Under the pieces are notes generated by a model. That model was given only the letters and a program-made list of their open reading frames with translations. It did not search any database and was not told where the DNA came from. Made by a program: the position numbers and the translations under genes. Of a stretch of DNA of 64,000 nt, positions 4,365-30,307 are shown piece after piece. Every line of letters starts with the position of its first letter. Positions within the stretch are counted from its first letter, which is position 1. The stretch is from a virus, in the IMG/VR virus record IMGVR_UViG_3300027896_005002, positions 59,488 to 123,487 of that record; one strand, given 5' to 3'.

Positions 4365-5270
4365 ATGAAAAACACTGGCTTTTCTGAAATAACTACTGAA
4401 CGACTTTACTATAATAGTCAAGATCCTTGGTACATGGAAGTCGCTATTACTGGTCGTTGCAATTTTTCATGTAAATATTGCAATAGATTCAATAATGATA
4501 TTGATCTTGCAAAACTTACCTCTTTTATTCAAAATAATCAATTCAGACATATTCAAATAACAGGCGGTGAACCTACAGTTCACAATCAATTCTTTGAAAT
4601 AATGAATTTATGTAGAAGTAAAACCAAAAAACTTGGTCTTTCTACAAATGGTACTTTTGGTATTGATAATTATTTGAAAAGTCAAGCAGATATGTTTTCA
4701 GTGTCATTAGATGATTATGACATGGACATTTTGAAGAATAGAGGATATAATAGTCCAGAAAAAATAGTTGATACTATAAAACAACTCGTTAAATATAAAT
4801 ATGTTAATATTGGTCTTGTAATTGATTCATTAAATATTGATAGAATAGAATCAATAGTAGATTTTATTTTGTCACTCGGTGTTAATGATATAAAATTATC
4901 AACATCAACAAAAGACCAATTAATACCTAAGTTCAAAAAAGATTATATTAAATATCCTATTTTAAATTATCGTGTACAAAACTTTAAAGATGGTAAACAA
5001 ATGCGAGGAAATGCTTGCAAAAAATGTTATATTGCAAGCAGTGATGTTACTATAGTTGGTGACAGTCATTATCCTTGTTTGACTTATTTTAGAGAAAAAG
5101 GTACAGCAATTGGTAAAGTAAATAATGATTTGATGAAAGATCGTATTGTTTGGATGAATGAACATGATTGTAGTAAAGATGATATATGTCAAAAATATTG
5201 TATGGATTTTAAATGTGAATTCAATAGAGCAAGAACGGAGATTGTATGTCAGTCAAACAAGTCATTGTAA
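4365..5270 (+). CDS. radical SAM enzyme with C-terminal Cys-rich (SPASM/twitch-like) region
   Basis: CNFSCKYC = CX3CX2C cluster, ITGGEP glycine-rich SAM motif; C-terminal CKKCY...C...CSKDDICQKYCMDFKC. Confidence 0.6.
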   Translation: MKNTGFSEITTERLYYNSQDPWYMEVAITGRCNFSCKYCNRFNNDIDLAKLTSFIQNNQFRHIQITGGEPTVHNQFFEIMNLCRSKTKKLGLSTNGTFGIDNYLKSQADMFSVSLDDYDMDILKNRGYNSPEKIVDTIKQLVKYKYVNIGLVIDSLNIDRIESIVDFILSLGVNDIKLSTSTKDQLIPKFKKDYIKYPILNYRVQNFKDGKQMRGNACKKCYIASSDVTIVGDSHYPCLTYFREKGTAIGKVNNDLMKDRIVWMNEHDCSKDDICQKYCMDFKCEFNRARTEIVCQSNKSL

Positions 5271-5635
5271 TTCGTAAAGATTTGAATATGAGAAAAGGTA
5301 AATGCATCGTGCAAGGTGCGCACGCTTCAATGAAAATATTTTTTGATCGGTGGCATAAAGTCGATAATCAAAATACTTTTATAACAGATTTCTTACCTGA
5401 TACTATGGTTCAATGGATTGAGGGATTATTTACCAAAATTTGTGTGAGTGTAAATTCTGAAGCCGAATTACTTGAAATTTATGAAAAAGCAAAAGAAGCT
5501 AATATACCAGTAGCTTTGATTGAAGATGCAGGTTTGACCGAATTTAAGGGAATATTAACTAAGACTTGTATTGCTCTTGGACCCGACGAATCTGAAAAGA
5601 TTGATAAATTGACTGGTCACTTATCTTTGCTATGA
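5246..5635 (+). CDS. peptidyl-tRNA hydrolase, PTH2 family
   Basis: KQVIVIRKDLNMRKGKCIVQGAHAS matches the PTH2 signature (vvVvRtDLgMgkGKiaAQcaHAa); overlaps preceding CDS end. Confidence 0.6.
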   Translation: MSVKQVIVIRKDLNMRKGKCIVQGAHASMKIFFDRWHKVDNQNTFITDFLPDTMVQWIEGLFTKICVSVNSEAELLEIYEKAKEANIPVALIEDAGLTEFKGILTKTCIALGPDESEKIDKLTGHLSLL

Positions 5636-8130: not shown

Positions 8131-8151
8131 TAAAGTATATCTCTTAAATAT

Positions 8152-8230
8152 GCCCGTGATTGGAATCGAACCAACATTTTCAGCTTCCTTTACGATTATC
8201 TGTTTAGGAAACAGACTCGGCTACACGGGC
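8152..8230 (-). tRNA. noncanonical tRNA-like gene, anticodon CCU (Arg/AGG), D-arm reduced to gccgag
   Basis: acceptor gcccgtg/cacgggc, perfect anticodon arm tctgt-ttcctaa-acaga, 23-nt region taatcgtaaaggaagctgaaaat, T-arm gttgg-ttcgatt-ccaat; no D-stem partner. Confidence 0.45.
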
Positions 8231-8233
8231 GCT

Positions 8234-9142
8234 CTAATGTTCTATGTGTGTAATTTGAATATCTTCTTTATTTATTTCAGCTGAATATTCTATTCCACAA
8301 TTAATACTATTCATAGGAATCGGTCTGTCTGCTAATGGATTATGAATAAAAATAAAATCATTTCCTAATATTTTATCAGTTGAGCTAATATTTGCATATG
8401 AGTAAATTACTCCACTTATATGAGAATATTGTAAATCAAGAAAATAATCTGTCTTAACAGGTTCATTTGATGATTTTTTAAAAATTTTATTACGATTTTC
8501 ACATGTTTGTCTAACAATTTTAGAACTAACTTTATCAATATGAATGACTACATTACCAACTGCTAAAAGAGCGGCTACACATTGCGGCACACCGCCTTCA
8601 ATATACAATGGTATACCATTTAAACCCTCAAGCCATCCACCACTAATGCAAATTATAGTACTTTGCACATTTTTGATTATACCATTTTCAATATCATGCC
8701 GAATTTTTTTTGCTTTTTCAGTAAAACTATTCGTATATCTTAGAATAATTTGGTTTTGCGGGTAATCCATGATACCATTGTAATTCGTTTTTGGAATAGA
8801 ATCTGGATTGTCTTTTTTTCCATCTGACATAGTAACTACTTCTATCCAACAATTTAAATTTTCAACAAATAAATCCGGACCTTTATCTGATGGATGAGAA
8901 ACATTGAATAACAATCGCTTTCTAAAAACTGTAGCAAAATAAAGTTCACTATAGCGAGCAGCAAAATCATGTTTCAACTGTGTTTTAAAAGTTTTGTCAA
9001 CTAAATCATGTGATATCTCATACAATTTCTCTACTCGATCACTAAATAACACACATAAATCAGGCGGAAAACCTCCTTGACCTCCTTGAATTTTATTATA
9101 TAAAGGATCAGTTGCAGATGGATCTGGATTTAATAATGTCAT
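8234..9142 (-). CDS. hypothetical protein (302 aa) bracketed by two related tRNA-like genes
   Basis: ORF track; no recognised motif. Confidence 0.3.
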   Translation of the reverse strand: MTLLNPDPSATDPLYNKIQGGQGGFPPDLCVLFSDRVEKLYEISHDLVDKTFKTQLKHDFAARYSELYFATVFRKRLLFNVSHPSDKGPDLFVENLNCWIEVVTMSDGKKDNPDSIPKTNYNGIMDYPQNQIILRYTNSFTEKAKKIRHDIENGIIKNVQSTIICISGGWLEGLNGIPLYIEGGVPQCVAALLAVGNVVIHIDKVSSKIVRQTCENRNKIFKKSSNEPVKTDYFLDLQYSHISGVIYSYANISSTDKILGNDFIFIHNPLADRPIPMNSINCGIEYSAEINKEDIQITHIEH

Positions 9143-9169: not shown

Positions 9170-9252
9170 TGGCGCCCGTGATTCGATTCGAACGAACATT
9201 TTCAGCTCCAATTACGATTAACTGCTTAGAAGGCAGTCTCGGCTACACGGGC
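9170..9252 (-). tRNA. noncanonical tRNA-like gene, anticodon UCU (Arg/AGA), D-arm reduced, CCA encoded
   Basis: acceptor gcccgtg/cacgggc-g-CCA, anticodon arm actgc-cttctaa-gcagt, then taatcgtaattggagctgaaaat, T-arm gttcg-ttcgaat-cgaat; same architecture as 8152-8230. Confidence 0.45.
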
Positions 9253-9337: not shown

Positions 9338-10129
9338 ATGGGTACTTCACAAGGTAACTTCAAAAGAAAACTTACTGGATTTTATGATAATGAAGATCGA
9401 AAAAAACAATGGAGTCAAGCTAGAATTAATACAAACAAAAATTCGGTCATTCTTAATCATAAAAAAACAATTCAGCAATTAACAAAATTAAAAATTAATG
9501 TTCAATGGTTTGAACTACAATTGCAACAACATCGTATTACCACAATTACTAAAAATTTAAAATTACTTGACATTAAACATCCAAAACTAGCACTTAAATA
9601 TTTAAAATCTTTATTAGAGCCAAAACGATTAAAAGAAATTGCAAAAGAAAAACGAACATCTAAAACATCTGTCACACTTAAAAATCGATTGAGAACTGAT
9701 ATCATACTGAAAAAGAAATATATTAAAAATCTAACAAAGAGAAATCATCATAAATATCGATCAAAAGGTGAATTACGTCTCAAACATTGGTTACAAAAAA
9801 CTTATCCTTACTATAATTGGAAAAGTATACATTTAACTTATAACAATTCAATTTATGAATTCGATATCTATTCAGAACAATATGACGATTTTTTCATTGA
9901 ATATAACGGCGCTTGTCATTATAAACAAATTCATAGTTTAGAAAACTTTCAGCGTATTCAATGTCGAGATGAACAAAAAATACAAATAATGAAAGAACTT
10001 AATAAAGAATTTCTAATCATCAAGGACAGCATGTCCTTTGAAGAACAAACAAAAACTGTGACAAAATTCTTTAATTTAAGTAGTAATCTTCAAATTAAAA
10101 AATTGGAGGTGCGGGGACACTTTATCTGA
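9338..10129 (+). CDS. homing-endonuclease-like protein with DUF559/Vsr-like C-terminal domain
   Basis: IYEFDIYSEQYDDFFIEYNGACHY...QCRDEQKIQIMKELNKEFLII fits the DF...iEydG..H...rD....l...G pattern; N-terminal KxLK repeats as in 1521-2498 and 25526-27031. Confidence 0.5.
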   Translation: MGTSQGNFKRKLTGFYDNEDRKKQWSQARINTNKNSVILNHKKTIQQLTKLKINVQWFELQLQQHRITTITKNLKLLDIKHPKLALKYLKSLLEPKRLKEIAKEKRTSKTSVTLKNRLRTDIILKKKYIKNLTKRNHHKYRSKGELRLKHWLQKTYPYYNWKSIHLTYNNSIYEFDIYSEQYDDFFIEYNGACHYKQIHSLENFQRIQCRDEQKIQIMKELNKEFLIIKDSMSFEEQTKTVTKFFNLSSNLQIKKLEVRGHFI

Positions 10130-10134
10130 TGTTT

Positions 10135-10940
10135 TCACACCAGTGTGGACTATCTCTTCATCCAATTGGATGATGGGCGCTAATAAAGGATTATTGATTG
10201 AGTTTCTCACCTTTTAGTCTCTGCACTTTCCAACCTACAAAACACTCTTTCAGTTGGCTTAGCTCAGGATTGCCATATCATTTTACTGATTTAGGGTTCC
10301 CTGAATTCACCCATTTTCTTCATCAATTGTTACCAATTGAGTCAACCATTTTGATTGAACCCCGGTCCAGAAAGTTTTCCATGACAATTACTACATGTTT
10401 ATTCTATTCTATCTTGAATACTCACTCCGTAAATAGACAAGCGTTCAATGAGTACTTCGTAAGTGTCACTTCGGTCCCCTTCTCTTTTACGCGTTCGGTT
10501 GTCCTATCCGTATATAAACAGTTCAAGTTGCTACGGCTCCGCTTAAACTTCGACCGCCTTTATTTAGGCAGCCATTGCTGGTGCCTTTGCGCACATTGCA
10601 GCGAACTGCAATGCGAACTGAGCACCGAAAACTGAACCAATTTTGTTGGCAGTTGTTGTTTCATTGGATGATTTAAGAGGCCAACCAATGAGTCCTCTAC
10701 ATGCAATTATCACTTCACCCAATCTGTCGAAACCTGACACCCCCATAATTTCAAAGAACATTAAATCTGGCTGCCGTGCCGCAGCCACCGTTTCATCGAA
10801 TAGGTACTTACCATGGCTATTCGCTATCCTCTACAATGATGCCGAAGCACTAACCACGACACGTCAAGCCAAAGGTATCATATGGTCTCAGCTTGACCGT
10901 CCCTGTGACAAGAGCAAAGGTCGTTAATCATGTCGCCATA
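10135..10940 (-). ncRNA. large GC-rich structured RNA; group I intron-like core (P7/P8/P9) at its 3' end on the minus strand; exon context unresolved
   Basis: Minus-strand motifs gtgCAGAGACUAaaagg ... gaAGAGAUAGUCCacacuggugug resemble P7 5'/3' strands (GACUA/UAGUC) of IC3 introns; many perfect hairpins (ggctgc-ggcacg-gcagcc; cattgcag-ttcg-ctgcaatg); GC about 45% vs 30% flank; listed ORFs inside are weak. Confidence 0.4.
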
Positions 10941-10953
10941 TGACTTATCAAAT

Positions 10954-11508
10954 TCACATTTTCTCTTTAACAAATATTTTTGCAATGTTATAAGCGTCAT
11001 CAACACCTCTGTGATGACGACCTTCAAGAGGAATATCTAACATTGTTAAAGCTTTATCCATTCCTATAGGTTTTATTTTATGCCTCTCAGCAAATTCATG
11101 TTTAAGACTTCTACTAATTTTAAATGGTACTTCAATATCATATCTTTTACAATCTTTAGCTAACTGTCGATGATCATAGAAGCCCCAAGAACAAAATATA
11201 AAATTACTTAAACTTTTCTCTGTTATTAAATAAACATTTTCTCGCCAAATATCCATTACAGTTCTAAAATCTTTTGCAATATCTATGGTAAATTGTTCAA
11301 TACCGGTCAGTCGTCTACAAAAATCTGATAACATCGGATTCAATTGTGGTTTAACAAATAAACCTTGTGATAAAATTATGCGATAATCATCAGTAACAAT
11401 TGAATAACCAATTTCAATTATTTCATTTTCATTTCGATTTGCTTTTACTCGACCTTCATTAGTATTTCTATCCCAACAAGTTGCTTCAAAATCTACTATT
11501 AAATACAT
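10954..11508 (-). CDS. DEDDh-family 3'-5' exonuclease (ERI-1/RNase T-like)
   Basis: YLIVDFEATCW motif I (DxE), later ...HRGVDDAYNIA motif III (H...D). Confidence 0.55.
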   Translation of the reverse strand: MYLIVDFEATCWDRNTNEGRVKANRNENEIIEIGYSIVTDDYRIILSQGLFVKPQLNPMLSDFCRRLTGIEQFTIDIAKDFRTVMDIWRENVYLITEKSLSNFIFCSWGFYDHRQLAKDCKRYDIEVPFKISRSLKHEFAERHKIKPIGMDKALTMLDIPLEGRHHRGVDDAYNIAKIFVKEKM

Positions 11509-11554
11509 GTTTCAATATTCAATTCATTTTTCATAGATTACAAATTAATTTATT

Positions 11555-11684
11555 GGTGCGCGACTCCGGGTCTCGAACCCTAAATTTATTTTAAGCGTAA
11601 GGCCTTACCCTATTGGGAACCACGTCTTTGCTCCTTACAACGGGCTACCTAAAATAAATTGCAGCCATCCTGCTAGAGTCACGC
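11555..11684 (-). ncRNA. 130-nt tRNA-like RNA with T-arm and 3' CCA; acceptor halves about 120 nt apart (insert-containing tRNA or other structured RNA)
   Basis: 3' end gggttcgagaccc + gtcgcgc-a-CCA; complementary 5' strand gcgtgac (one G-U) about 120 nt upstream; D-arm-like tagc-aggatg-gctg; internal palindrome gtaaggccttac. Confidence 0.3.
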
Positions 11685-12885: not shown

Positions 12886-12958
12886 GGGACTGGTAGGAGT
12901 CGAACCTACGACCTCAACTTTGTAAGAGTTGCATTCTGTACCACTGAAATACAGTCCC
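12886..12958 (-). tRNA. tRNA-Val (anticodon UAC)
   Basis: acceptor gggactg/cagtccc, anticodon arm caact-cttacaa-agttg, T-arm gtagg-ttcgact-cctac. Confidence 0.7.
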
Positions 12959-13949
12959 GATTATTCAAATTTTTAAATTCTCTTACTAAATGTGACATTC
13001 TAGTTGTACTAGTTTGCCACTTATTTGCTAATCTAGAAATTAAACCATATTCATTTATATCTATAACCATAGCTAATTCAACAAAAATTTGTTTTTTCTT
13101 ATTTAAACGTTGTGATTCACACGGTGACAATTTTTTAATATTATTAATTTTAAAAAATCGACTTAATTGTCTTTCAGATATAGCAAGCTTACTAGCAATT
13201 GTTTTATTATCTAATCCTTCATCAACTAATTGAATTATTTCTTTTGCTTTATTAGAAACATCATTAATTACAATTTCTTTTTGTAATTTAATTTCATTTG
13301 TAACATTTAAGCTTTTTGTTTCTAAAAATTGTTTTAATTGATTAATAACTGTGTCAAAATTTTTACAAATAGCTCTAGCATGAATATTTATTACCTTCCA
13401 ACCTCTTTCAATAATATATTTTTCACGATCAACATAATAAGATTTTAGTTCATTATTAAAATAATGAGCATTGCCATTGACTTCTATATCAATTTTTAAA
13501 TTTATTATTGCAAAATCCATTCTATAATTTCTGTCAAAATCATCTGGTGTATATTCTTGAATAATTTTTTCATCAACATTACATTCTAACCATTGTCTTA
13601 ATATTTTCTCAGGATATGTTTCTTTTTTCTTTCGCCAAGGATGATTTATTCTAGTTTTTAACCACTTTGATGTACTTTTTGACAATCGTTTTTTAGATTC
13701 TTCTGTATGTTGAACTGGATATTTCTTTCTAGCTAATATCATTGCTTCACTTAAATTACGTCTATTTTTAATTGCAAGTTTTGTAATAAATCTTGGAAAA
13801 CGACCTAAATGTCTTATTTCTCGCAATGATAAACCATTTTTATAATACAATTCTTTTACTTTATCGATGTCATCTTTAGTTACACATTTATGATTTGTAA
13901 ATGCACCATTATTTGTAAAAGATCTATTACATTTTTGACATTTTATCAT
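12906..13949 (-). CDS. homing-endonuclease-like protein (Zn finger + HTH repeats + DUF559/Vsr-like nuclease)
   Basis: MIKCQKCNRS Zn finger; DFDRNYRMDFAIINLKIDIEVNGNAHY...DREKYIIERGWKVINI; C-terminal overlap with tRNA-Val. Confidence 0.55.
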   Translation of the reverse strand: MIKCQKCNRSFTNNGAFTNHKCVTKDDIDKVKELYYKNGLSLREIRHLGRFPRFITKLAIKNRRNLSEAMILARKKYPVQHTEESKKRLSKSTSKWLKTRINHPWRKKKETYPEKILRQWLECNVDEKIIQEYTPDDFDRNYRMDFAIINLKIDIEVNGNAHYFNNELKSYYVDREKYIIERGWKVINIHARAICKNFDTVINQLKQFLETKSLNVTNEIKLQKEIVINDVSNKAKEIIQLVDEGLDNKTIASKLAISERQLSRFFKINNIKKLSPCESQRLNKKKQIFVELAMVIDINEYGLISRLANKWQTSTTRMSHLVREFKNLNNRDCISVVQNATLTKLRS

Positions 13950-21750: not shown

Positions 21751-21777
21751 TTAAGGCCTATCATCACATTAAAAAAT

Positions 21778-21857
21778 AGGAGAGGAGGGATTTGAACCCT
21801 CATCTGCCACATACCGTTACGATTATCCGCCTTATAAGAGCGGCTCGGTACTCTCCT
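21778..21857 (-). tRNA. noncanonical tRNA-like gene, anticodon UAU (Ile/AUA), reduced D-arm; same architecture as 8152-8230 and 9170-9252
   Basis: acceptor aggagag/ctctcct, ta-ccgag, anticodon arm ccgct-cttataa-ggcgg, ataatcgtaacggtatgtggcagat, T-arm gaggg-ttcaaat-ccctc. Confidence 0.45.
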
Positions 21858-25525: not shown

Positions 25526-27031
25526 TCATAGTTGTGTAACAAGTTGTTTAGAAATAATTTTTTTAATCATACGTCTAGTAATTTTATATTTTTTAATTAA
25601 TACTCCAATCTTAAAACCATTTTGATAATCATTAATTATATCATTGATTCTGAATGAAACATTTCTATCACACCATCTCTTTTTAATAAAATATCCACTA
25701 TTTTTTATACTAATATTATTATCTAAAAACAATTGTTTAACCTTTTTATTCAACACATTATATTTTCTACAAATTTTACTTAATGAATTATTATTTTTAT
25801 AATCATCAATTATTTGTTTTGCAAGATCACTTGTTATTATAGTTTTTATTTTGTAAAATCGTTTTATAGTATACTTTGTATTGTACTTAATAAATCTTTT
25901 TACTTGTGTTTGTGATACATTCCATAATTTTGCAAGTATAGCAAATGTTCCACGTTTATTAATATCAACTTTTTCAAGATCATTTAATCTATTTTGACGT
26001 AATTCATTTCTTATTTTTATAATTTTACTTATTTTTTCATTTTTTCTTTTAGTAATCTCTGCTAGATTATTAAGCGCTACCAACTGTTTATCAGTATATT
26101 GTGAAATTAAAACATCTCTTTTTTCAGATGATTTAAGAATAGATTTTATTTCTTGAAACTTATCTTTTGAATTATAACAAATTGCTCGCCAACAAATTCT
26201 AAATACCGTAATATTATTTAATTTAAGCAATGCATCTTTCTTTTTATCAATTTCCTGACGTCGCTTATATCTATAATGTTGTTGACCGTCAATTTCAATA
26301 GCTAATGATAATTTAGGAAAGAAAAAATCTACTCTATAAACAGAAAAAGGAAATTCAGTATAAAAATCATCATTAAGTTTATATCCTTCATTAATTAAAA
26401 ATTTAAAAAAAGTTTTCTCAGCATATGACTGATTGTCTTGTTTATACCAAGAATTAGCTCTATTTTCAGCATGCATTATTTTACATTTTTCAGACCACTT
26501 TTTTCTTGATTCATCTGACCACTTAAAAGTATATTTTTTATGAGCTAATTTCGATGCATCTGCGACAGATCGTCTATAACATTTTAATGCAAAATGTATG
26601 AGACCTGTATCAAAACCTTGATTATGTAATTCACGCGATGATAATCCAGAATCATATAGATTACGAATTTTTATAACATCATTATCTTCATAACATTTAT
26701 GTCGTTTATAATTACCACTATTAAATGATCTATTACATTTTTTACAAATAATTTTTTTATCACTAAAACTATTTATTGCTTTTTTCCTATATATTTTAGT
26801 ATGTGCAATTTTTAATGTATCACTAGCAGTTCTTTTCAAATCTTTTATACATCTATTTATTTGATTTCGTGTATAACCTATTTGAATTATATCTTTTATT
26901 AATAATCCAGAATTATACAAATCTCTAATTTTCTGTCTATCGTTCTCAGATATCTTACAATATTTCTTATGTGAAAAAAAACTTCCAGGATTCGTAAAAA
27001 AATTACCGCAATTCTCGCAACATAATTTCAT
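25526..27031 (-). CDS. homing-endonuclease-like protein: Zn finger, multiple HTH (NUMOD-like) repeats, DUF559/Vsr-like nuclease domain
   Basis: CENCGNFF, IRDLYNSGLLIKDI / IRNLYDSGLSSREL repeats; YRVDFFFPKLSLAIEIDGQQHY...DKKKDALLKLNNITVFRI. Confidence 0.6.
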   Translation of the reverse strand: MKLCCENCGNFFTNPGSFFSHKKYCKISENDRQKIRDLYNSGLLIKDIIQIGYTRNQINRCIKDLKRTASDTLKIAHTKIYRKKAINSFSDKKIICKKCNRSFNSGNYKRHKCYEDNDVIKIRNLYDSGLSSRELHNQGFDTGLIHFALKCYRRSVADASKLAHKKYTFKWSDESRKKWSEKCKIMHAENRANSWYKQDNQSYAEKTFFKFLINEGYKLNDDFYTEFPFSVYRVDFFFPKLSLAIEIDGQQHYRYKRRQEIDKKKDALLKLNNITVFRICWRAICYNSKDKFQEIKSILKSSEKRDVLISQYTDKQLVALNNLAEITKRKNEKISKIIKIRNELRQNRLNDLEKVDINKRGTFAILAKLWNVSQTQVKRFIKYNTKYTIKRFYKIKTIITSDLAKQIIDDYKNNNSLSKICRKYNVLNKKVKQLFLDNNISIKNSGYFIKKRWCDRNVSFRINDIINDYQNGFKIGVLIKKYKITRRMIKKIISKQLVTQL

Positions 27032-27803: not shown

Positions 27804-27812
27804 GTGATAATC

Positions 27813-27890
27813 AGGAGCGAAGAGACTCGAACTCTCATTTTCAACCAAATTACAAGTATATGGTTTTGGAGACCACACTGTTACGCTCCT
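27813..27890 (-). tRNA. tRNA-like gene with good acceptor/T-arm but irregular anticodon region (undetermined)
   Basis: acceptor aggagcg/cgctcct, T-arm gagag-ttcgagt-ctctt; middle ccaaaaccatatacttgtaatttgg has no clean 5-bp/7-nt anticodon arm. Confidence 0.35.
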
Positions 27891-28837: not shown

Positions 28838-28924
28838 TGGCGGAGGGTGAGGGACTTGAACCCCCAGGTCCTTTCGGATCCGCTTTTCAAGAGCGACACG
28901 CTACCAATTACGCTCTAACCCTCC
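28838..28924 (-). tRNA. tRNA-Ser (anticodon UGA), class II, CCA encoded
   Basis: acceptor ggagggt/accctcc-g-CCA, anticodon arm tcgct-cttgaaa-agcgg, variable arm tcc-gaaa-gga, T-arm ggggg-ttcaagt-ccctc. Confidence 0.7.
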
Positions 28925-30180: not shown

Positions 30181-30307
30181 AAAAATTGTCTTTATTGAAT
30201 GTTCTTAATAACTTCATGTCGTAATTGGATTTTAACCAATGTCTTTAGACAAAATGTGCTGACTTATTGCACCATACGACATTGCCGATAATTTCAAAGA
30301 ACAACTT

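Follow-up and report, generated by a model that had tools for sequence, protein, structure and literature searches.

Genes for transfer-messenger RNA (tmRNA, ssrA) occur in three forms, the standard, the permuted and the 'intron' form, the last being split by a group I intron in the T-psi-C loop (PMC11915505). The intron form has been catalogued with 883 unique sequences, mostly interrupted at loop position 7 and mainly from Bacillota (PMC11915505), and the published phylum table covers Bacteria and Archaea only. The catalogued introns have an average length of about 293 nucleotides (nt), 4% of them contain a LAGLIDADG gene, and a P7.1 region has been described as one of their features (PMC11915505). 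Phages carry tmRNAs as well. They were found with ARAGORN in huge phages (PMC7162821) and in phage G (PMC12484599), and a tmRNA of mycobacteriophage DS6A is known to us as cited in PMC11915505. A full-text literature search returned no report of an intron-form tmRNA in a phage within the collection searched. Here, we describe such a gene on the minus strand of a 64,000-nt stretch of the IMG/VR virus record IMGVR_UViG_3300027896_005002 (positions 59,488 to 123,487 of the record, hereafter the window), in a region that an earlier note had read as a structured, group I intron-like RNA without exons. Sequence and comparison show this locus to be the ssrA gene of a huge phage, with a 236-nt group I intron that has no open reading frame (ORF) inserted between T-loop nucleotides 6 and 7. 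We assign the window to a huge phage because its own proteins occur on public contigs of up to 416 kb. Taken as a whole, the locus is very probably best explained as an intron-split, self-splicing phage ssrA, accompanied by a putative convergent homing endonuclease that would mobilise both the nuclease gene and the intron.

Like the bacterial intron-form tmRNAs (PMC11915505), the gene in the window has its group I intron at position 7 of the T-psi-C loop, with a U:G pair in P1 and a terminal G. Its intron is likewise short (236 nt) and ORF-less, has a stem in the P7.1 region, and would rebuild the T-loop on splicing. Unlike them, the gene lies in a huge phage, specifies a tag of 28 amino acids (aa) and does not encode the CCA end, and the endonuclease gene beside it stands outside the intron, whereas the LAGLIDADG genes of the catalogue are found inside. 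With the phage-encoded tmRNAs (PMC7162821, PMC12484599) it has in common that the phage carries its own ssrA among many transfer RNA (tRNA) genes and other translation-related genes. The reported phage genes are uninterrupted, whereas the one in the window is split. Because ARAGORN misses this gene, intron-form copies would have been missed by the phage surveys.

A tmRNA gene split in the T-loop

The GC content is 0.39-0.47 over positions 10100-10999 and 0.22-0.33 in the flanks, which confirms the sharp shift in composition reported by the earlier note. The region is, however, not one RNA of about 800 nt, as proposed there. Read on the minus strand, it is a composite of a spacer, tmRNA exon 1 (391 nt, 10744 to 10354), the group I intron (only 236 nt, 10353 to 10118) and tmRNA exon 2 (14 nt, 10117 to 10104). 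The functional gene thus extends to 10104, past the boundary at 10135 that had been drawn before, and of the ~850 nt some 640 are taken up by the tmRNA and its intron.

When the whole window was scanned with Rfam, the tmRNA model (RF00023) matched at 10737..10352 with 80 bits (E=2e-29), and the Intron_gpI model (RF00028) matched in its full length (1-253) at 10367..10126, with 91 bits (E=5e-22). The group I intron suspected earlier, for which an Infernal search had been suggested, is therefore present. Both matches exceed the curated gathering thresholds (47 bits for RF00023, 50 bits for RF00028), and they abut at the T-loop. Neither acceptor strand is covered by the tmRNA match to the interrupted gene, nor is the 3' half of the T-arm, as expected if an intron splits the T-loop. 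ARAGORN found 24 tRNAs and no tmRNA in the raw window. With the candidate intron excised in silico, the program did report a tmRNA, whose tag is ANKIGSVFGAQFALQFAAMCAKAPAMAA, ending at a stop codon.

A naturally intron-less allele defined the splice sites with single-nucleotide precision. Contig L186 was reached through its 98%-identical exonuclease, and is 99.5% identical to the window over 13000-10354 and 8230-6000. Its tmRNA gene is uninterrupted, with an Rfam match of 136 bits over the full model and an ARAGORN tag identical to that of the window. Exon 1 is 100% identical to the corresponding part of this intact gene, and the exon 2 sequence stands directly after UUCAAU. The junction in L186, which reads ...GGGGTTCAAT followed immediately by TCCCCGCACCTCCA, equals the predicted ligated exons base for base. 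Judging from this allele, precise removal of the intron restores the host gene at the genomic level. Four public copies (L024-L027) gave no variation, because they are 100% identical to the window.

Exon 1 contains the 5' acceptor strand GGGGGUG (with G3), the tag frame, the pseudoknot region, the 5' strand of the T-stem and T-loop nucleotides 1-6 (UUCAAU), and its 3' end reads ...CGGGGUUCAAU. Exon 2, UCCCCGCACCUCCA, complements the T-stem and acceptor strands of exon 1, supplying T-loop nucleotide 7, the 3' T-stem and the 3' acceptor strand with U70, as well as the discriminator A. Once the exons are joined, they give a 7-bp acceptor stem (GGGGGUG/CACCUCC, including G3:U70), a T-stem CGGGG/CCCCG, and the T-loop UUCAAUU. 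A G3:U70 pair marks alanine acceptors. CCA is not encoded after exon 2, where AUU follows.

The tag is read on the minus strand from 10650 to 10564, in an internal frame with a resume codon and a stop codon. It has a length of 28 aa, where 10 aa are typical, and its frame is kept in the diverged relatives L046, L187, L188 and L193. In this phage clade, represented by the window and these four loci, the tags are unusually long (26-30 aa) and conserved. The UUCG-looped 8-bp stem seen by the earlier note is indeed there, as a perfect hairpin CAUUGCAG-UUCG-CUGCAAUG at 10613-10594 of the minus strand. In the same five loci, a conserved ...QFA... segment of the tag coincides with this UUCG-capped hairpin (10594-10613) inside the frame.

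Directly adjoining the tmRNA 5' end is an 18-nt leader, AAUGUUCUUUGAAAUUAU (10745..10762, minus strand). Its motif, (AAUG)UUCUUUGAAAUUAU, stands immediately before the mature 5' end and is kept in relatives: it precedes the tmRNA in L186, L191 and L193, and a looser version does so in L046 and L187. An identical copy of 16 nt is located at 30288-30303, between tRNA-His and tRNA-Leu. The motif may act as a promoter of the phage or in processing. Upstream of it, the gene order from exonuclease to tmRNA is conserved in L046, L187, L191 and L186.

More split tmRNA genes were recovered by probing public collections with the exon/P1 junction and the J8/7-P7' core, and by protein-guided look-ups. The intron form was seen on at least five IMG/VR viral contigs (including L030, L039, L046 and L054), and in two bacterial metagenome-assembled genomes (MAGs; L099 and L140). 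The exon/intron junction 20-mer had 0 matches in 185,579 species genomes, and four of its eight metagenome matches were discarded as chance occurrences inside coding sequences (CDSs). Locus L021, which has the 5' 20-mer in common with the window, was also set aside, as it carries an unrelated, intron-less large tmRNA. In a blastn search of 50,697 phage genomes, no close relative was returned and the matches were confined to the intron core, in a tRNA intron of E. coli jumbo phages and a terminase intron of a Vibrio phage. An exonuclease search in IMG/VR gave only relatives of at most 41% identity, without this gene arrangement.

The tRNA intron deserves a closer comparison. In Escherichia phage Turkey5 (L028, PQ471516.1, ~289.0-289.35 kb) a tRNA(CAU) gene is split in the anticodon loop by a group I intron, at a place where the record has no annotation, and an annotated HNH homing endonuclease gene follows immediately. 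Similar to the window, the intron core is ~69% identical, the host RNA is tRNA-like and belongs to a jumbo phage, and an endonuclease gene is located just downstream. The difference is in the insertion site, which is the anticodon loop of a tRNA and not the T-loop of a tmRNA.

Boundaries and fold of the group I intron

Besides the L186 allele, the boundaries follow from rules, namely that the 5' exon ends in a U paired with a G in P1, that the intron ends in G, and that a 7-nt T-loop is rebuilt. Together, these select a single solution (10744-10354 / 10353-10118 / 10117-10104, minus strand), with the insertion site at T-loop position 7, between loop nucleotides 6 and 7. U10354, the end of the 5' exon, pairs with a G in P1 in all four aligned sequences, and G10118 is the terminal (omega) G.

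The fold was evaluated on an alignment of four introns of the window's type (window, L046, L187 and L188), with a hand-curated structure comprising P1-P9, a P7.1-type stem and the P7 pseudoknot. A fifth intron of this type is found in L192. Over the 67 pairs scored, 98.1% of the cells form standard pairs, and 21 pairs changed on both sides, compared with 0-3 when the partners were slid by 1-3 columns. None of 500 shuffles reached the observed values, a control that is weak with four related sequences. The slid controls and the per-helix pattern are stronger evidence for the fold. Compensatory changes are rich in P2, P6 and P9, and the core helices P3, P7 and P8 are invariant. Because of this invariance, the pairing of P7 is neither favoured nor disfavoured by covariation. 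P1 covaries with the exon, as UUCAAU/GGUUGA versus UUCGAU/GGUCG.

The folding energies, expressed as z-scores against shuffled sequences, were -2.32 for the intron, -2.0 for exon 1 and -0.59 for the 5'-most 209 nt of the region. The many hairpins noted earlier upstream of the intron are the body of the tmRNA. For the 5'-most 209 nt, the fold is not better than that of shuffled sequences. The minus-strand motifs quoted in the earlier note are present, and P7 and P9 had been correctly recognised: GCAGAGACUA and GAAGAGAUAGUCC form P7, which is followed by the P9 hairpin. A different helix has to be taken for P8. The AAUAA/UUAUU pairing of the proposed AAUAA-UCCU-UUAUU hairpin is broken in three of the four homologous introns, and P8 is CAUCCA/UGGAUG. 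The IC3 label given to the intron is doubtful, because a stem between P7 and P3' matches the P7.1 region of tmRNA introns. This stem, AAGG/CCUU, is formed by the region of the hairpin formerly taken for P8 and shows one compensatory change. Together with an inner hairpin, it occupies columns 154-183 of the alignment. Williams is said to have originally classed tmRNA introns as IA3, in 2002.

The neighbouring Vsr-like putative nuclease

A 263-aa ORF on the plus strand (9338..10129) converges with the tmRNA gene. Its last 26 nt are antisense to exon 2 and to the final 12 nt of the intron. The C-terminal tails of its homologs cross exon 2 in different frames, indicating that the overlap reflects tight packing and not a conserved peptide. 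Only three 90%-identity clusters of this protein were found among 5.8 billion proteins.

Searches of Pfam, PHROGs and PDB sequences and with hhalign returned nothing significant for this ORF. The Pfam DUF559 model (PF04480) had no match at E<=0.01, and a profile-profile comparison with true DUF559 ORFs aligned 10 residues at 4% probability. The remote homologs, on the other side, match DUF559 (six of them), PvuRts1I, DUF2726 and MTES_1575. The predicted structure has a Vsr-type nuclease fold, and its closest structural match is a proven homing endonuclease. The earlier description as a DUF559 homing-endonuclease gene is thus right at the level of the Vsr/DUF559 superfamily, by predicted fold, although the ORF does not match the Pfam DUF559 model.

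The ORF appears to possess the Glu, Asp, His, Asp set of the Vsr-like/EDxHD homing endonucleases. In an alignment of 60 sequences, no change is seen at D176, E188, G191, H194 and D211, and hardly any at E145. Judged by its spacing, this set of residues resembles E170/D196/N208/H213/D222 of I-Bth0305I (PMC3239194; PDB 3r3p). The two proteins have no significant sequence match and differ in further respects. I-Bth0305I is encoded inside its recA intron and has NUMOD-type N-terminal DNA-binding motifs, whereas the window ORF is not within the intron, and its confidently predicted N-terminal domain of ~135 residues is all-helical and unrelated. The ORF is taken here as encoding a putative free-standing homing endonuclease. 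For cleavage that drives its own inheritance the evidence is indirect, namely its presence or absence between near-identical strains and the constant position of the family at tmRNA 3' ends.

Association of the nuclease with tmRNA genes

The ORF family was located at the tmRNA 3' end in eight of eight independent loci, that is, for every homolog whose context was retrieved. In the window, L187, L188/L189 and L192, the nuclease gene is convergent and adjoins an intron-containing tmRNA. In L031 and L032 it is co-directional and adjoins an intron-containing tmRNA of another intron subtype, and in L193 (confirmed by ARAGORN) and probably L194 it is co-directional and adjoins an intron-less tmRNA. 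Altogether, family members stand beside an intron-containing tmRNA in six independent loci (window, L187, L188, L192, L031 and L032). A simple rule, by which a convergent nuclease would go with an intron and a co-directional one with none, was discarded, as it is broken by L031 and L032.

The window and L186 differ in the intron, in ORF 9338-10129 and, downstream, in a swapped gene that stands between two atypical tRNA-like genes. The single nucleotide polymorphisms between them cluster beside this cassette. The window therefore presents a free-standing endonuclease gene next to an ORF-less intron, with a near-identical relative having neither.

Only two phage systems of trans or collaborative homing are cited in a review (PMC3984707). 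As in T4, with MobE and the nrdB intron (PMC2790892), and in S-PM2, with F-CphI and the psbA intron (PMC3984707, PMC6083498), a free-standing endonuclease gene adjoins an intron-split gene, the intron is without a working endonuclease, and related phages are without both. Unlike in these systems, the target here is a structural RNA gene, the tmRNA, and not a protein gene. Furthermore, the window nuclease is Vsr-like/EDxHD-type and not HNH or Endo VII-like, it is convergent, it overlaps the 3' exon, and its cleavage activity is predicted only.

Proposed splicing and homing

We propose that a precursor is transcribed from the minus strand and that its intron folds into P1-P9. Self-excision would proceed by two transesterifications started by free guanosine, with attack after U10354 and exon ligation after G10118. 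Exon 1 would be joined to exon 2, by which the T-arm and the acceptor stem are rebuilt. The 405-nt product would then be trimmed at its 5' end, receive CCA, and be charged with alanine via G3:U70. Together with SmpB, this tmRNA would rescue stalled ribosomes and append the 28-residue tag.

In parallel, the convergent Vsr-like nuclease would cut the tmRNA genes of co-infecting relatives lacking the cassette. Repair from the cassette-bearing genome would copy both the nuclease gene and the intron, in a trans or 'collaborative' type of homing. The intron would be co-copied with the nuclease gene because the two are only 14 nt apart, and it may shield the resident tmRNA gene from the phage's own nuclease. 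On a bolder reading, somewhat less likely than not, the Vsr-like proteins would make up a family of free-standing homing endonucleases that has not been described before and has specialised on phage tmRNA genes. With the ORF-less T-loop intron, this family would form a two-part mobile cassette. The intron would hitch-hike on the nuclease and protect the resident tmRNA gene, and the window and L186 would be a natural before-and-after pair. If true, the two-part cassette would represent collaborative homing into a structural RNA gene.

Several points weigh against a self-splicing tmRNA with a nuclease-driven cassette. The splicing, CCA addition, charging and trans-translation are steps that we infer from the behaviour of the respective families. 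No SmpB was found with a tblastn query in the 64-kb window, a weak negative, given that this stretch is only a minor part of the genome. In the homing model, DNA cleavage by ORF 9338-10129 and its target site are presumed. In L193, a 38%-identical nuclease homolog stands beside an intron-less tmRNA with unchanged T-loop sequence (GGGGTTCAATTCCCC). The T-loop alone can therefore not be the target of every family member, and an intron is not needed there for self-immunity. This homolog argues against a simple model, extended to the whole nuclease family, in which the T-loop is the target and the intron gives immunity. L046 has the same exonuclease-tmRNA-intron arrangement as the window, but is without any nuclease ORF. 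Moreover, the cassette difference between the window and L186 includes the swap of an unrelated gene (a 302-aa ORF versus a 304-aa DUF559 ORF), so more than one recombination event may be involved.

Alternative explanations

It is possible, though somewhat doubtful, that a recombination hot spot carries the nuclease and the intron as two independent passengers. The nuclease would then perform 'intron-less homing' on the tmRNA 3' end or trailer, and the intron would have come separately, with occasional co-conversion only. The nuclease homologs downstream of intron-less tmRNAs in L193 and L194, and the nuclease-free intron of L046, would be expected under such a scenario. It also accommodates a second, unrelated DUF559 gene in the corresponding neighbourhood of L186, and a further family member on the opposite side of the tmRNA in L188. 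On the other hand, with a spacing of 14 nt any repair tract would carry the intron and the nuclease together, the six independent loci named above pair a family member with an intron-containing tmRNA, and the window and L186 differ by both elements at once.

We regard it as improbable that ORF 9338-10129 is not a mobility gene and benefits the phage or the RNA instead, for example by helping in splicing (as a maturase), by processing the tmRNA, or as a nuclease directed against the host or used in defence. Its confidently predicted N-terminal helical domain of ~135 residues has no assigned function, the family is strictly associated with tmRNA genes, and homing endonucleases are generally known to acquire maturase roles (PMC3984707), all of which would suit such a role. 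However, the ORF is present or absent between near-identical strains, as for a selfish element, and its orientation varies among loci. Moreover, its closest structural match is a proven homing endonuclease, and related nuclease domains in other loci lie near introns of protein-coding genes.

A large 'ornate' phage non-coding RNA (ncRNA) of the GOLLD or ROOL type, ~800 nt long, as considered in the earlier note, would fit a GC-rich island among the tRNA genes of a phage genome. It is very hard to credit here. At E<=5, Rfam matches nothing in 10000-11050 except Intron_gpI, tmRNA and, below threshold, tmRNA_permuted, which excludes GOLLD and ROOL and leaves no other large ncRNA. Besides, ~640 of the ~850 nt are tmRNA plus intron, and the remaining 209 nt are without excess structure or homologs. 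A free-standing or degenerate group I intron or ribozyme without exons, also raised there, agreed with the lack of a split CDS or tRNA halves alongside and with the silence of ARAGORN at this position, but has next to no likelihood, as the exons are the tmRNA halves (by Rfam, and by ARAGORN after excision), the intron-less L186 allele exactly equals the predicted ligation product, and the covariation across lineages points to a maintained fold and argues against decay.

Other features of the region

Upstream of the tmRNA, a gene for a DEDDh (RNase T-family) exonuclease is located at 10954..11508 on the minus strand (Pfam PF00929, E=3e-14). The 5'-most 209 nt of the GC-rich region (10953-10745, minus strand) comprise a GC-rich spacer and the 18-nt leader. 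The spacer (10763..10953, ~190 nt, ~46% GC) is non-coding and stands between the exonuclease stop and the tmRNA leader, outside tmRNA and intron. It is lineage-specific, being present only in the window and L186 and absent in L046, L191, L187 and L188. For the 209-nt region there was no Rfam match (E<=5), no repeat (a single copy in the window), no homolog in the retrieved loci or IMG/VR, and no excess folding energy. The spacer ends in a terminator-like hairpin (10787-10768), in which L186 has a 1-nt insertion, and it may be an exonuclease 3' untranslated region with its terminator, or a small RNA. In the intergenic stretch upstream of the exonuclease gene, at 11509-11678, the GC content is again elevated (0.38-0.39, against a background of ~0.27), with no Rfam match.

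Two paralogous, atypical tRNA-like genes (minus strand, ~9170-9252 and 8151-8230) bracket the cassette that differs between the window and L186. Their D-arm is reduced, their variable arm is long, and the acceptor stem of both is GCCCGUG/CACGGGC. Neither is called by ARAGORN at its default settings, and Rfam matches only the second (38.5 bits). A function as amber suppressors (anticodon CUA) was considered and rejected, as the 7-nt loops CUUCUAA and UUCCUAA give the anticodons UCU and CCU. Between the two genes, the window has a 302-aa ORF (8234-9142, phrog_8571, without an assigned function) and L186 an unrelated 304-aa DUF559 nuclease gene (4651-5565 of that contig), a second presence/absence swap of a probable mobile gene beside the tmRNA cassette.

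In the whole window, Rfam gives 26 tRNA matches above threshold and ARAGORN 24 genes, the discrepancies including the low-scoring 8151-8230, 21777-21857, 27812-27890 and 28843-28922. Two more ORFs matching the Pfam DUF559 and helix-turn-helix domains are located among the tRNA genes on the minus strand (12906-13949 and 25526-27031), which makes this tRNA-rich region dense in Vsr-like putative homing endonucleases.

One of the related loci comes from an unexpected source. L188 is contig JAUSEY010000060.1 (50.8 kb) of NCBI assembly GCA_030650065.1, an archaeal MAG labelled Nitrosarchaeum sp. It carries phage-like genes, tRNAs, an intron-form tmRNA and a Vsr-like nuclease, and is probably a misbinned phage contig.

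Implications for phage tmRNAs

What had looked like an exon-less ribozyme resolves into an ordinary, easily overlooked gene. The carriage of tmRNAs by large phages is probably undercounted, because phage pipelines use ARAGORN (PMC7162821, PMC12484599), which is blind to the intron form, seen here on five or more IMG/VR viral contigs. From bacteria, for which it has been catalogued, the intron-form tmRNA is extended here to huge phages, which suggests phages as possible vehicles that move the tmRNA intron between bacterial phyla. With the strain pair of window and L186, and a nuclease family found only at tmRNA 3' ends, it becomes directly testable whether an RNA gene is a target of trans or collaborative homing. 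Finally, the long and conserved tags raise the question whether the tags of phage tmRNAs serve the usual degradation purpose.

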